From Candidatus Omnitrophota bacterium (GTDB taxonomy: Bacteria; Omnitrophota; Gorgyraeia; Zapsychrales; JBDRMG01): 64,000 bases of DNA. The stretch's first letter is position 1, and the number at the start of each line of letters is the position of its first letter. A program made the position numbers. The stretch lies in contig JBDRMG010000018.1 in assembly GCA_043812495.1 (NCBI GenBank), positions 7,794 through 71,793 of the forward strand, given 5' to 3'. Positions 35,601 to 56,600 of the stretch are shown here, in pieces.

Positions 35601-38600
35601 CAATAAAATCTTTTTCAAAGTCGATAAAACGGCTTAGCCCTACTTCAAGAGGCGAAATGGTTTCATCCATATCCTGGCCGTACAAGCCATAACCCATTTC
35701 CAATCTCAGGACATCGCGCGCGCCTAAGCCAGCTGGTTTTACATTATCATCTTCTAATAATTTTTTCCACAATTCTTTTGTTTTTTGCCAGGGAAAATAA
35801 ATTTCATAACCCAGCTCGCCGGTGTAACCCGTGCGGCTAATCAACGCCTGCTCTCCCAGAAGATGAAAAACATCAAACGTGTAATACGTCAACCGCTCAA
35901 TGCCCGGCGCGAGAGTCTTTAAAATGTCCCTTGCCAGAGGCCCCTGGAGATCCAGCTTTCCCGTTTTCATGGAGATATTCTCGAAACTGGACTCATCGGC
36001 TAAGTGCTTGCGAAAATGTTTTTCATCTTTGTCCGTGGTAGCCGCATTGACAACAATCATCCATTGTTTGTCCTTCATACGAAAAACAACGCAGTCATCA
36101 ATGATACCGCCTTGCTCGTTACAAAGGGCGCCGTAACGACATGATCCCAGAGGTGCATCTTTTATTTTCGAAGTTACAAGGCGATCTAATCCGTTTTTTT
36201 GAGCATCCACTTTGATCAGGAATTCTCCCATGTGACAGATATCGAATAACGCGGCTTTTGTACGGGTGGCCTCATATTCCTTATATATAGTCGTGTAGGA
36301 AATAGGCATCTGCCATTCGCCAAAAGGAGCCATTTTGGCGCCAAGCTTTAGATGTTCATCGTAAAGAGGTGTTTGTTTGAGATTTTTTTGTCTAGACATG
36401 TGGAAGAATTAACATCGCAGGATTTCATGCGCCTGGGCCTACTTCGCCCGCCATTGATGCAGTGGCGGGCTTCGTAGCCCTCACATACTAAGATATTTTC
36501 GCAGTTCTATGAAGCCAAAGGCGAAAGTTCTGCTTCGCAGAATATTTTCCATGTTCTGCTTCGCAGAATTCTTCGAAGCTTCATGCGAAGAAGAACACTT
36601 TGGCGAAGTAGAACCCGCCCAGGAGGACTCGAACCTCCAACACCTAGCTCCGAAGGCTAGTGCTCTATCCAATTGAACTATGGGCGGTTTAATTGATATT
36701 CCTTAAATTAATTTCACCACTTTTTACAATTTTTATTAAATAATCTTTTCGCTTGAGCCGCTTTAATTTATATTCAATCTTTTGAGCAATTTTTGAATCC
36801 GAATACTCTTTCTTGAAAACTAACTTTACAGGTAAAAATCTCTTTGTTGTATGAACAGCACCTTCATTATGTTTGCGTATCCTTTTTTCTATATTGGTAG
36901 TACTTCCAATATAGTATCTACCATTTTTTTCACTTTCGAGAATATAAACATATGTCATTATATTTCTTTTGATTCTCCATCCAACTCCGACACTCCGACT
37001 TCCATACTATATTTTAGAAGATGTCGGAGGTCGGAGCCCCGACTGAGTCTTACGACGAGTGTCGGGGTTGAGCTACAGGCGCAAATACCTTTAATCTATT
37101 TCTATAAAATCTTTATCGATTATACACTTAAATCATTTTTATGGAAATAGTATTTTTCTATTTGCTTGATCCCCGCCCGTCAAAATGGTCAAACAATTTT
37201 AATGGGCGGGGTTAATTCAGCCAGTGACTTACGCTTAGCCCCGCTTCTTGCCCCGCCGTCTGCCTGTCGGCCCGGCCTCGACTCGGCCAAGGGCCGAGGC
37301 GGGCAGACAAGCGGCGGGGCAGCGGGGCACGCGTAAGTCACGGCTTCATTAATTTGAAGTCATTTTGCACAATCTCAATCTTTGTTAAATTCTTCTCTCT
37401 TTTTTCAAAAAATAAGATAAAATATATTTTATGTCAAAGGACAAAATCAGGAAAATATTATTGAACGATTTTGCCATCGCTCTTTATTTGCTTGTCCTCT
37501 TCCTTTTGAGCCACGGCTACCTGTACGGATGGGACGACCAACACCTTGAAATCCCGCTTTTAAAAAGTCTCATCGATCCCACGCTCTATGCTCACGATTA
37601 CTACGTGCAAAGCCTGAAGGCCAATTTTATTACTTATTTTTATCCCCTTCTTGCTCACCTCATATCCATCCGTCAGATTCCCGTTGTTTATTTTTGCTTA
37701 TTCTTACTTTCCCGCTATTTCATGTTTTTCTGGATGTATAAATTTTGGCTTTTGATTTCCAAAAATCAATCCAAGGCCTTTCTATGCACATTCTCTTTTA
37801 TTGTTTTGACGCGCGTGGAGCCTTTTCTCTACAGAACCTTTTCTCATCAGGAATTTGCTTTTGCTTTTATTTTCGCCGCCCTTTACTTCTTTTATAAAGA
37901 AAGATTTGTTTTAGCCGCTATCATTTTAGGCCTCAGCGCCAATATTCATGCGCTTTATTGCCTTTTTCCGATGATCTACATGGCCTGTTACCTTCTGCTG
38001 GCTCATAAAAAGCATGGGTGGGCCATACTTTTTAAATCTTGCGCGACATTTATTCTGTGTTGTATTCCTCTGTTGATCTGGATTGCGCGTAAAACCCTAT
38101 CGACTCCCGTACTTCCTGAGCTTTTCGTCGTCGAGAATTGGCTTCCTTTTTACAAAATCGTCCTTCCGGATGCCTTCCCTTTTGATCACATCCATTTTGA
38201 GGGGGTGACGATTCCCCTCTTAAACTTCTTGATTGCTGCTGAGCTTTATCTTTCTTTGATTGCGCTCTATTTTCTCAATCATCTTTATAACGAAACGTTT
38301 AGATCAAATCAAAAGAATTATGTGATCGCTTGCATGGCTTTCCTCTTCATGGCGCTTTCTTTTGCCGTGTGCTACATCGTTCCCAATAAATTCTTGATTG
38401 ATTTGAATCTATTAAGAAATAACGAGTTTTATTTCTTTTTGATCGGGGGATTTACCCTGTTGCTTTTGCTGGAAACGGTCCAGCGGGAAAAGCTATGGAT
38501 GGGGTTCTTGCTCTGCATCGTTTATCCTTTTATTTTTGTCGAGAATATCCTCGCAGCCATCACCGCATGCGCCCTGATTCTCCTTTTCTCTTTGAGGCAA

Positions 38601-53600: not shown

Positions 53601-56600
53601 ATCGAGGCGATCATTTAAGTAACTTTCCTTGAGATGCAGAAGACGCGATAGCTCATCGATGGCCTTTTCTTTGTCCTGGAGCGTCATCATCCTGGGCTTG
53701 GCATACAGAGAATAGGCGGTGACATTAAGAGCCAGGGGCCGTCTGTGACGATCATAGATGCCGCCTCTTTTAGGCTCAAGCTCGATCAAATGATCATGTT
53801 GTTTTTTGGCAATATTGGCGAGAAACGAAGAGCTAAAAATCTGAATAAATAACAATTTAACGGTAAAGACGAGAAGAAGGACAAAAAAGGTGAGAAAAAT
53901 TAGACTGAATCGGAGAGAATGCTTTCGTATGTGCACGAGTAACTCAAGTTGTTCAATCGCTTGAAGCGATGAGGATCATCGGATCTGTGACTATTTGATG
54001 GTCCTGGCTTCGGCTTGGGCTTTTAACGAAAATAGTTTTGCAAAAATGTTTGGTTCTTTTTTGGGCGAAACCGCTGAGGCCAATCGGGCATCTCCCGCGC
54101 GGTCCCGGACCTTCACTTCCACGATTTGATCTTTGTCCAAGAATTGCATGTCGGATCCATCCGTCAATAATGTCACCCCCAAGTGATTGGCGCTTTTGAG
54201 CATGCAGATATCATAAACGGTGTCCCCTTTATCATCCAGGAGATTGCGTATCTTCTTTTGTTTATTTTTTCCCTGATAGGCCAAGTCATAAATTTGGACT
54301 TGGAGATGAATGTAAATCAACGACATGAGGGTGACCATCATGAGGACCCGTAAACAGCGGCATAATTTCATTGGATTTCCTTTTCAATGAGGCCATGACT
54401 TATGGAGTCCGCCATTGATCCAGTGGCGGGCGACATAAGTCATATGGCCGAATTGACCTCGCCCACCAAAATTGTTAAACAATTTTGGTGAGGCGGGGGA
54501 TTAAGCAAATACAATTATAATATTTCAACTTGTCAGATCCGTTCGATGACGCGCAATCGTGCGCTGCGCGACCGCGGATTCTCGCTGATTTCTTCTTCTG
54601 TAGCGCGCAAAGGTTTTTTGGTGATCAGTTTTGCTTGGTGTGCCCTGGATAACGTGCGAAATTTCTCTTTGACAATTCGATCTTCAAGAGAATGAAACGA
54701 AATCACGCACAACCGGGCCCCCTTTTTTAAGTAGACAAAACATTTGTCCAAAGCTATTTCCAGGGCCTCCAGCTCCCGATTGACGGCAATGCGAAAAGCT
54801 TGGAAGGTGCGCGTCGCCGGATGAATGCGCTGATGTCTCTGAGCGTGCGGAATAGCCTTTAAAACACTATTTGTCAATTCCTGCGTAGAAGCGATCGGGC
54901 TTCTGGCCCGCTGAGCAACCAGATAATGGGCGATGCGATAAGACCAGCGCTCCTGTCCGAAGGCCTTTAAAATCAAGGCAATTTCTTTCTCTGATAACGA
55001 ATTCACGAGATCATAAGCTGAAATATAACTGTTTTGGTCCATGCGCATGTCCAAAGGACCGTCCGCCTGCAAGCTGAATCCACGAACTGGATTGCTCAAC
55101 TGATAACTGGATATTCCTAAATCAAAAAGCATCCCGTTCACATTTTCGATTCCGAAATCTTGTAGAATATTGTCTATCTGCCGAAAATCTTGATGCACAA
55201 AATGACAGGAACCGCTAAATTCTTTCAACCGCTCTTGGGCTATTGTCAGAGAATCGAGATCCCGATCAATGCCGATCAGGCAACCTTTGGATCCGATTCT
55301 TTTTAAGATTTCTAAGGCATGCCCGCCGGTGCCCATGGTGCCATCCACCAGGCAGTCCCCCGGTTTTGGATCCAAATAGTCCAAGACCTCCTTGAGCATC
55401 ACAGGAATATGGATTGTTTGATTCATGATTTCACATTCTTGGGTCATGTTCTGATTCTGTTTTGCGGTCGACGGTGCTAAATGTTGATCATTTTCTCGGC
55501 AATCTCTTCAAATGAATCTTTTGTGTCGGCATAAAATGTCCGCCATGTTGTTTGATCCCAGATCTCGATTCTGTTGGAAATGCCGATGACAATCGCATCA
55601 CGTTTAATCAACGCGTATTCTTTAAGAAATTCCGGAATGATAAAACGCCCTTGCCGATCGGGAACAACTTCAACCGCCCCTGAAAAAAACATACGATTAA
55701 AAGAGCGCGCTTCTTGCTTGGTGAATGAAAGGCCTCGGAATTTTTGTTCTTGAAGATTCCACTCATCTTCGCTGAACATAAAAATACATTTGTCCAAACC
55801 TCGGGTTAAGTAAAATTTCTCTATCCCTTGCTCTTTGGAAATTTCACGAAACCTAGCCGGAAGGATAAGGCGGCCTTTACGATCTATGCCATGGTTATAT
55901 TCACCGTAAAACATATCGCTCTCTTGTTAAACCACTTTAAACCACTTTATTCCACTTTAAGTGCATTTTATGGCCAAAAGAGGGTCCTGTCAATAATTTA
56001 TTTCCCTATTTTTATGAAATACAATAAGTTGCGTAAATTTCGAAAAGATTCTCTATGGGCAGGAAACAAACGAAGGATAATCAATCAGGTGAGATTTATT
56101 GAAGGAAATATTACGAAGATTTTCTACCAAAATTGATTCTTCTTAATAACTTCTTGGCGTTTTGTTCGTCTTTCTTAAGCTGTTCGATGAGAAGTTTTCT
56201 TGTACTAAATTTCTTTTCATCTCGAATCTTCTTCAAAAAACTGATTTCTATCTTTTGTCCGTAAATATTTTTATGAAAATGAAAAATATGCACCTCCACA
56301 TTAATTTTTCTTTTTCTTTTTTTAAATGACGGACGGAATCCGACATTGGCTATCCCCACGAAAAATTTTCTTTTGATCTCAATCTTAACAAGATAGACGC
56401 CACAAGGCGGAATCACTTCCCTGAATGGATCGATATTGGCCGTCGGATACCCAAGGTTTTTTCCCCGTCGATCACCGCGCTTAACGCGACCGAAAACGGA
56501 AACTGGCCTCCCCAAAAGTCGAGCCGCCAATTCAATATTTCCTTGCGTGATGATTTGTCGAATCCTTGTACTGCTGATCATTCGCCCGTTACTTTTGATG

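Follow-up and report, generated by a model that had tools for sequence, protein, structure and literature searches.

In most bacteria FtsZ forms the division ring and FtsA usually anchors it; the way in which walled bacteria divide when FtsZ is missing has still to be explained. In Chlamydia, ftsA and ftsN occur in 0% of 194 genomes according to the portion available of one survey (PMC10591338). For the Omnitrophota, a figure legend in Pende et al. 2021 (PMC8178401) lists Omnitrophica as FtsZ-less, and the supplement has three genomes with FtsA and without FtsZ: FtsZ and SepF are absent in four of five Omnitrophica rows, FtsA is present in three of those four, and the fifth, the FtsZ-positive OLB16, was later termed a misclassification in a passage of PMC10066038. 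An earlier note on the DNA studied here had held that FtsZ loss in this phylum was left open or denied, which the 2021 legend contradicts. The claim made there is the same as ours, in one sentence and for five genomes, with no analysis of FtsA in the sections available. No report on the division mode of Omnitrophota or on localisation of their FtsA was found in the literature, nor anything on Omnitrophota division in the available portions of PMC3794156, PMC12992704, PMC9871819 and PMC11929135. FtsZ loss is already in print, and what we add is the decay of the FtsZ pocket of FtsA, selection on FtsA, and a candidate SPOR partner.

The window, a stretch of 64,000 nucleotides on contig C18 of a Candidatus Omnitrophota genome (G000), contains a dcw cluster (Table 1) that stops at ftsA, as the earlier note had claimed, with a gene of the opposite strand in the position of ftsZ. 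The 75 bp between the stop codons of these convergent genes leave no space for ftsZ or a remnant, and the same junction in eight related genomes of the same order excludes a mis-join. The gene order reported before holds overall but had omitted the Peptidase_MA_2 gene. The 114-aa gene, behind ftsA in eight same-order loci, is confined to one order in our samples (none of 40 genomes outside it) and, being also on the opposite strand, was rejected as an FtsZ substitute. The 126-aa frame has no Pfam or NCBIfam match; its translation has a hydrophobic stretch near the N-terminus, and position and shape make it a probable FtsL. The murB of this genome lies outside the cluster, on contig C31.

Table 1. 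Features of the dcw cluster and its flank in the window (window positions).
Feature	Positions	Strand	Basis
mraZ	55477..55914	-	PF02381
rsmH/mraW	54533..55447	-	PF01795
126-aa bitopic protein in FtsL slot	53991..54371	-	FtsL by position and shape only
ftsI (class B PBP)	52260..53936	-	PF00905 + PF03717
murE	50785..52245	-	Mur ligase domains; named by position
murF	49430..50797	-	Mur ligase domains; named by position
mraY	48335..49426	-	PF00953 + PF10555
murD	47068..48324	-	PF21799 + PF08245
ftsW	45976..47064	-	TIGR02614, 429 bits (cut-off 337.5)
murG	44912..45979	-	PF03033 + PF04101
zinc peptidase, MA clan (Peptidase_MA_2), between murG and murC	44130..45014	-	PF13485, E 1e-18
murC	42757..44157	-	in dcw cluster
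ddl	41781..42773	-	PF07478 + PF01820
ftsQ	41039..41797	-	POTRA_1 above cut-off, FtsQ_DivIB_C slightly below
ftsA, 408 aa	39816..41042	-	TIGR01174, 241.7 bits (cut-off 175.85)
gap in expected ftsZ position, 75 bp, no remnant	39741..39815	.	
114-aa protein, two hydrophobic stretches, convergent with ftsA	39396..39740	+	no family match
623-aa polytopic membrane protein (DUF6798), neighbour outside cluster	37431..39302	+	domain match

FtsZ is absent from the genomes searched. G000 has no match to PF00091 at E<=10 or to TIGR00065 at E<=1, which bears out the claim that it encodes no tubulin/FtsZ domain; six-frame phmmer and tblastn searches of this genome for FtsZ gave no match, and the GGGTG[ST]G signature was not found in it. 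A scan of close relatives with P0001 gave no match. G000 is 90.5% complete and lacks mreB too, since its contig C61 breaks off 185 bp before mreC; absence from this genome alone is therefore no proof. Across 401 Omnitrophota genomes, PF00091 has four matches at E<=0.01, two of them above the cut-off; these two proteins (in G336 and G374) are TubZ-like, not linked to ftsA, with 50-55 bits for TIGR00065 (cut-off 295) and a TubZ-like_C domain without FtsZ_C. One of the matches below the cut-off (L003) looks dehydrogenase-like by eye, from ORFs only, and the other (L004) has a stop codon within the matched region. Among 54 orphan tubulin-like loci, most with planctomycete and three with Omnitrophota titles, neither the tail motif nor a nearby ftsA was found, and the FtsA of G336 itself lacks subdomain 2B; present in 2 of 401 genomes and away from ftsA, the orphan proteins were rejected as the missing FtsZ. 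The earlier statement that no sampled Omnitrophota has FtsZ therefore stands for 401 genomes, and for 171 searched with a second profile (see below), and fails for the tubulin domain as such.

The loci agree with the genome-wide counts. TIGR00065 is without a match in five genomes, three of them one-contig, and no FtsZ follows ftsA at any of 74 loci, at least 1.5 kb having been read in 70; one weak FtsZ-profile match behind ftsA proved to be ProC and was rejected. The FtsZ regulators SepF, ZapA and MinC were each found in 0 of 81 genomes, counts that have no FtsZ-bearing sister phylum as control. The genes yggS and proC normally come after ftsZ. At 28 of the 74 loci (20 families) at least one of them is found no more than about 4 kb downstream of ftsA, and in eight yggS begins 4-83 bp after the ftsA stop codon, which we read as the scar of ftsZ loss.

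FtsA itself has been retained, SHS2_FTSA (PF02491) being present, as a single copy each, in 368 of 401 genomes (PF14450, at 400 of 401, was dropped as a count because it matches other actin-fold proteins as well). Our FtsA set excludes L113, which is PilM-like, and L106, L108, L110, L111 and L112, which contain no FtsA. The G000 protein scores 48 bits for PF02491 and has the full fold with 1C and 2B, phosphate and adenosine motifs intact in its sequence, and a C-terminal helix ending in EYF; its model (pLDDT 89.2) has FtsA as best Foldseek matches, with TM 0.81 to 7Q6G, and residues 392-407, of low pLDDT, form a predicted amphipathic membrane helix. The C-terminal tyrosine and phenylalanine are kept in 78 and 79, respectively, of 80 Omnitrophota sequences. 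FtsA is under purifying selection, with dN/dS of 0.06-0.19 in the six of 11 pairs that allowed an estimate, so it is not the relic that the earlier note had feared.

What has changed is the pocket for the FtsZ tail, located in region 234-245/294-304 (PMC10769210), the region alone being cited here since no source was found for single pocket residues. Where E. coli FtsA has D242, R300 and E303, the G000 protein has C, E and R. R300 presumably has a role in the pocket. This triad is complete in 9/9 controls and in 7/7 planctomycete FtsA that precede a decayed ftsZ, as against 0/9 planctomycete FtsA that have no tailed ftsZ after them and 1/64 full-length Omnitrophota FtsA, the exception being G312, in which FtsZ was looked for with PF00091 and at the ftsA locus. 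Kin genomes in such counts are not independent. In the pocket, controls average 0.47 identity and Omnitrophota 0.23, against 0.255 and 0.266 in 1C. Judged from sequence, the FtsZ pocket of Omnitrophota FtsA has decayed, which fits another role or partner for the protein. Part of the decay is general, as nucleotide-pocket residues conserved in 9/9 controls are relaxed too (D/E14 in 49/64, D210 in 48/64, K258 in 51/64). Subdomain 2B, which makes the longitudinal filament contact, has become shorter or is missing altogether in 16 of 80 sequences. A quick tree, its long branches flagged, explains this by five changes, at least two of them forced. These 16 therefore probably do not form ordinary protofilaments, and a filament “rudder” cannot, with the relaxed nucleotide pocket, apply phylum-wide.

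FtsQ, FtsB, FtsW, FtsI and FtsK are all present, FtsB and FtsK in five of five genomes each, and FtsL by position only. A candidate partner for FtsA is a single-copy bitopic protein (G000:C43:27940-28539) that is FtsN-shaped, with a short cytoplasmic tail, one hydrophobic stretch, a linker and a C-terminal SPOR domain (125-198), the tail and hydrophobic stretch being taken from the alignment. It has matches in 87 of 91 genomes, some spanning the SPOR domain only. A QxELF motif is present in strict form in 24 and in loose form in 29 of 30 aligned sequences (alignment A4, which leaves out L248, L263 and L264 because their starts are masked or too long, and takes L212 in place of L241, to which it is identical). 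We take this motif to be similar to the sliding-clamp motif and unlike that of the E. coli FtsN tail. The FtsN gene is argS-linked; in the three genomes read, that of the SPOR protein is outside the dcw cluster and no argS was found over the preceding 10 kb or so (ORF starts by eye). Complex prediction for FtsA (alignment A1) with SPOR-protein residues 1-38 (A4) gave 0.02 against a mark of 0.32, the controls not having been folded, and counts neither for nor against binding. In E. coli and Vibrio, FtsN binds the 1A-1C cleft of FtsA and induces curved FtsA double filaments (bioRxiv 10.1101/2021.11.08.467742), and binding of the SPOR protein to Omnitrophota FtsA is a tentative suggestion.

We favour, with moderate confidence, a peptidoglycan divisome without FtsZ, in which FtsA is retained as a membrane hub for FtsQLB-FtsWI and FtsZ was lost ancestrally. 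ftsZ would have been deleted in the Omnitrophota ancestor and the remaining divisome kept (FtsA, FtsQ, FtsB, the probable FtsL, FtsW-FtsI, FtsK and the FtsN-shaped protein). FtsA would no longer grip the FtsZ tail; most likely it would sit on the membrane via its C-terminal helix, its 1C side collecting and activating FtsQLB-FtsWI, with the QxELF SPOR protein as likeliest partner, and FtsK and/or MreB, not a Z-ring, would mark the division site. That FtsA acts in division at all we consider likely. The earlier proposal of FtsZ-free division with FtsA working on another partner is supported in part, by the missing FtsZ, the selection on FtsA and its decayed pocket, the partner being a candidate only. 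A bolder version, which we regard as rather improbable, is an actin-only divisome in which a phylum-wide FtsN-like protein would switch FtsA through its QxELF tail and FtsA would have replaced the Z-ring as organiser of FtsWI. The PVC clade might then preserve the steps: a decayed FtsZ still tailed beside an intact FtsA pocket, a tail-less FtsZ with the pocket decayed, FtsZ gone, and finally subdomain 2B deleted.

Division might instead be Chlamydia-like, MreB, RodZ and FtsK organising septal synthesis and FtsA being an eroding accessory or allosteric activator of FtsWI, which we think unlikely. Chlamydial division is described as MreB-dependent in the available part of PMC10591338, mreB is present once in four of four near-closed relatives, 21 of 37 genomes encode a RodZ-type HTH (near ftsK on C27 in the case of G000), and an eroding FtsA would agree with 2B having been lost more than once and with the loosened ATP motifs. 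Yet this single MreB is encoded in an ordinary mreBCD-mrdA-rodA operon, 16 of 37 genomes lack the RodZ-type match, and FtsA, lost in Chlamydia, has a match in all nine SHS2-negative genomes re-examined.

It is improbable that an FtsZ diverged beyond recognition persists outside the cluster, or that an unrelated FtsA-binding polymer has taken its place. PF00091 alone does overlook decayed FtsZ (among PVC proteins, it gives L216 14 bits and does not detect L217), so the earlier test with this profile only was inadequate by itself although its outcome holds; in each genome the profile search scored no more than a few first-look candidates; and G312 has the full triad. However, decayed PVC FtsZ still lies behind ftsA with its C-terminal peptide (6/6 readable), beside FtsA that keep the triad missing in Omnitrophota. 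Profiles built from decayed FtsZ, which recovered held-out members at 49-227 bits when each was left out, found nothing credible in 171 genomes (one match, 16.6 bits, within a 2577-codon frame). Against six frames of G000, the top two matches of the combined canonical-plus-degenerate profile were Rossmann enzymes at 16.2 and 11.7 bits, rejected as FtsZ (transhydrogenase alpha and semialdehyde dehydrogenase). The single FtsZ-tail-like pattern of G000 lies in the interior of a 505-codon frame rather than at the end, and no conserved unknown gene occupies the ftsZ slot.

Still less probable is an FtsA that is repurposed outside division, for instance as a PilM-like membrane platform, or a relic: FtsA and PilM share a fold and the cleft in which a short cytoplasmic tail is bound, and the QxELF motif also resembles the start of G000's own PilN-like gene, but G000 has separate PilM-like genes, ftsA still follows ftsQ immediately, the most diverged family examined included, and the dN/dS values exclude a relic. 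An assembly or binning artefact, conceivable from the incompleteness of G000, is refuted by a slot internal to C18 with its recurring junction, by the recovery of single-copy ftsA from 368 of the 401 genomes, and by one-contig genomes also without ftsZ.

A phylum without FtsZ but with FtsA and a late divisome separates two jobs of FtsA, as tether of FtsZ and as organiser or activator of FtsWI. Its natural FtsA variants, including those without 2B, can be expressed and assayed without culture; the D242/R300/E303 triad offers a sequence read-out of FtsZ dependence for incomplete genomes; and the decayed pocket with a possible new partner gives a handle for testing how such cells divide.

With Chlamydiota, as far as covered by the available part of PMC10591338, Omnitrophota share the absence of FtsZ and the presence of peptidoglycan genes, FtsK, FtsQ, FtsB, FtsW, FtsI and MreB; unlike Chlamydia, they have FtsA almost everywhere and an FtsN-shaped SPOR protein, and the dcw cluster of G000 is intact. 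Planctomycetota, likewise a PVC lineage without canonical FtsZ in the portions available of PMC12283558 and PMC12673574, had been thought by the earlier note to have lost FtsA, which SHS2_FTSA in 16 of 121 genomes, with or without a decayed ftsZ behind, does not bear out; FtsA without FtsZ is hence not exclusive to Omnitrophota. The planctomycete minority has the same decayed pocket where no tailed ftsZ follows, and seven sampled genomes still have a decayed ftsZ behind ftsA; the phylum differs in the rarity of FtsA (16/121 versus 368/401), in the loss of many mur genes as those portions describe it, and, among five planctomycetes tested, in that the QxELF-TM part was not found. Compared with canonical FtsA (7Q6D, 7Q6F, 7Q6G, 7Q6I and 4A2A), the Omnitrophota protein shares the fold (TM 0.76-0.82), SHS2/1C, the C-terminal helix and the position after ftsQ, and differs in the lost triad, the short or deleted 2B of some members and the near-invariant terminal YF.

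Loss of FtsZ is real and phylum-wide in the Omnitrophota genomes searched, and the FtsA that these bacteria keep, judged from its sequence, has lost its FtsZ pocket, yet is no relic. The FtsA-specific SHS2 domain is present in 368 of 401 Omnitrophota genomes, one copy each, and nine of the 33 misses, when re-examined, comprised six with a readable FtsA-like ORF, two score-only matches and one short N-terminal fragment. The FtsZ tail contacts FtsA residues 234-245 and 294-304, according to PMC10769210. We aligned 80 Omnitrophota FtsA sequences, picked for family spread and mostly among the better-scoring matches, with nine controls, in eight of which ftsZ is annotated adjoining ftsA (the Tistrella record carries no annotation). 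Of 20 control-invariant positions, the least kept in full-length Omnitrophota proteins are D242 (3/64), R300 (5/64) and E303 (15/64; E. coli numbering), occupied in the genome under study by C, E and R, while at 14 of the remaining 17 positions 70-100% of Omnitrophota FtsA retain the control residue. The full triad occurs in all nine controls, in all seven planctomycete FtsA followed by ftsZ, in none of nine planctomycete FtsA whose locus lacks a tailed ftsZ (the locus being judged, not the whole genome), and in a single full-length Omnitrophota FtsA of 64 (L089, on G312:C26). Mean identity drops from 0.47 in controls to 0.23 in Omnitrophota across the pocket and is unchanged in subdomain 1C, the SHS2 domain (0.255 vs 0.266). 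FtsA dN/dS is 0.06-0.19 in six pairs, none including the present genome, with five further pairs saturated; a terminal Y is found in 78 and a terminal F in 79 of the 80 sequences, and the model of the FtsA studied here (pLDDT 89.2) matches FtsA structures with a TM of ~0.8. Subdomain 2B is shortened or deleted in 16 of the 80, through five changes on a quick tree, at least two of them forced by strong branches; because 2B makes the longitudinal contact of the FtsA filament, normal polymerisation of these shortened FtsA is improbable. Residues of the nucleotide pocket are likewise relaxed, which, together with 2B loss, speaks against a simple story of FtsA change.

As a partner for this FtsA, a SPOR protein of FtsN-like layout is a tentative candidate. 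FtsB and FtsK were found in five of five genomes tested, and two to three SPOR matches in each of five. The protein itself has matches in 87 of 91 genomes, some through SPOR alone, and carries near its start a QxELF motif (strict in 24/30, loose in 29/30) followed by a hydrophobic stretch that a G-x-x-x-G-K/R motif closes (30/30), a linker and the SPOR domain. Its N-terminal part is single-copy in the genome under study and was not found in five planctomycete genomes. In family f20, FtsA ends in WSIF or WDFF and the motif of the SPOR protein of G041 is shrunk to EDLF, a single case that may hint at co-divergence. Alternatively, the QxELF motif could target PilM or the sliding clamp. According to one preprint, the FtsN tail, bound in the 1A-1C cleft of FtsA, induces curved double filaments both in E. 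coli and in Vibrio, and PilN occupies the same cleft of PilM (bioRxiv 10.1101/2021.11.08.467742). The arrangement we consider probable is a membrane hub in which FtsA would gather and activate FtsQLB-FtsWI via 1C, the SPOR protein might, less certainly, act on FtsA as a switch, and FtsK or MreB would mark the division site. Its main rival, a Chlamydia-like division by MreB, RodZ and FtsK with FtsA merely accessory, is favoured by single-copy mreB in four of four relatives and a RodZ-type HTH in 21 of 37 genomes; we regard it as rather unlikely.

The absence of FtsZ from the present genome, as claimed in the earlier note, is borne out: PF00091 has no match there at E<=10 and TIGR00065 none at E<=1, and phmmer/tblastn searches of 35,004 six-frame segments, for which E. 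coli FtsZ plus two tubulin-like proteins served as queries, returned nothing below E 0.3, with E. coli FtsA, as positive control, recovering ftsA at 2e-40. The top match of a combined FtsZ profile is a transhydrogenase. Taken from this genome alone the absence is weak evidence, because mreB is also missing from the assembly, lost at the end of contig C61 (L211); on that contig, as in the one-contig genome G335, mreC-mreD-mrdA-rodA is followed directly by several type II/IV secretion-like ATPase genes. Across the phylum, PF00091 matches four of 401 genomes at E<=0.01, two above cut-off, and TIGR00065 none of five (this genome, three others assembled as a single contig and one as two). The two above the PF00091 cut-off, tubulin-like proteins of G336 and G374, were rejected as FtsZ: they reach 50-55 bits to TIGR00065 (cut-off 295), have a TubZ-like C-domain instead of that of FtsZ, and are set among metabolic genes. 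Their family numbers 54 loci, mostly planctomycete by title and three from Omnitrophota, with 59-73% identity to the query and an often Lys-rich N-terminus; none of the 54 lies near ftsA or has an FtsZ tail, and no neighbour is common to more than nine. Hence the statement that no sampled Omnitrophota has FtsZ holds for true FtsZ, found in none of the 401, but not for the tubulin domain, which G336 and G374 possess. SepF, ZapA and MinC each gave no match in 81 Omnitrophota genomes, which, counted within this one phylum, lends weak support to FtsZ loss.

PF00091 being insufficient alone, a degenerate-FtsZ profile was built. Of 121 genomes from the phylum to which G402 belongs (Sedimentisphaerales by title, planctomycete), 16 match SHS2_FTSA, contrary to the earlier view that Planctomycetes also lost FtsA. 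A decayed ftsZ lies directly after ftsA in seven of the 16, scoring 62-235 bits to a seven-sequence FtsZ profile; its GGGTG loop is eroded, and the C-terminal peptide is kept in six of six with a readable end. One more of the 16 retains only a relic lacking the tail, which scores 48.9 bits when held out. PF00091 misses two of the seven, so the previous test with it alone did not suffice. The decayed-FtsZ profile gave one match in 171 Omnitrophota genomes, of 16.6 bits, within a 2577-codon frame. We hold a hidden FtsZ to be very unlikely.

On the minus strand of the window, the dcw cluster runs mraZ, rsmH, a 126-aa ORF in the FtsL slot, ftsI, murE, murF, mraY, murD, ftsW, murG, an MA-clan peptidase, murC, ddl, ftsQ and ftsA, with murB outside it on contig C31. 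That FtsA has been repurposed seems highly improbable. The cluster stops at ftsA with an opposite-strand 114-aa gene next, as previously described: 75 bp separate the end of ftsA (39816) from that of the convergent gene (39740). Relatives of the latter lie <=108 bp from the ftsA stop in eight loci of that order, which shows the junction to be genuine, and an artefact can practically be dismissed; the gene was found in none of 40 genomes outside this order.

No conserved gene occupies the slot behind ftsA. Within ~4 kb lie yggS or proC in 28 of 74 loci (20 families), yggS starting 4-83 bp past ftsA in eight, and gcvT in 12 of 74, abutting ftsA in three families of other classes. Since yggS-yggT-ileS usually follows ftsZ, the slot reads as a clean excision. 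None of the 74 loci has an FtsZ-like ORF behind ftsA; five weak FtsZ-profile matches there proved on checking to be ProC.

Coordinates of the features discussed
Feature	Location	Remarks
FtsN-layout SPOR protein	G000:C43:27940-28539	199 aa
FtsA too diverged for PF02491, families f20 and f29	L274:1165-2349, L275:979-2169, L105:7029-8174	
Decayed ftsZ and tail-less relic, eight loci (a)	L215:990-2117, L216:3338-4537, L217:3280-4356, L219:3459-4403	
Decayed ftsZ and tail-less relic, eight loci (b)	L220:3234-4280, L221:3617-4684, L222:2931-4061, L231:3307-4272	
TubZ/CetZ-like GTPase family	L001:1012-2295, L002:1318-2517, L128-L181	~370-430 aa, mainly uncultured planctomycetes
MA-clan zinc peptidase	window 44130-45014	inserted between murG and murC, overlaps both as called
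Glycine-cleavage operon gcvT-H-PA-PB	window 32105-36399	close to ftsA
RodZ-type HTH gene	G000:C27:3485-4785	close downstream of ftsK, same strand
Open frame of >3400 codons	L111:3-10301	downstream of SEDS gene, G041

The loss, described in the earlier note as left open or denied, is already in print, stated once in passing: the figure legend and supplement rows of PMC8178401 list Omnitrophica as FtsZ-less, with FtsA in three of four FtsZ-negative rows. PMC5147048 reports FtsZ only in OLB16 and leaves the rest open, PMC10066038 treats OLB16 as misclassified, and PMC12283558 describes dcw genes as highly conserved in Omnitrophota. A literature search that covered few subscription journals turned up nothing published about Omnitrophota's FtsA pocket or about an FtsN-like protein of theirs. 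PMC12673574 has ftsZ lost in all planctomycetes and these as the only free-living FtsZ-less bacteria, which seems to conflict with a decayed ftsZ in seven of 16 genomes from the phylum of G402, Planctomycetota by title. Omnitrophota represent an FtsZ-less peptidoglycan division marked by an FtsA both kept and remodelled.
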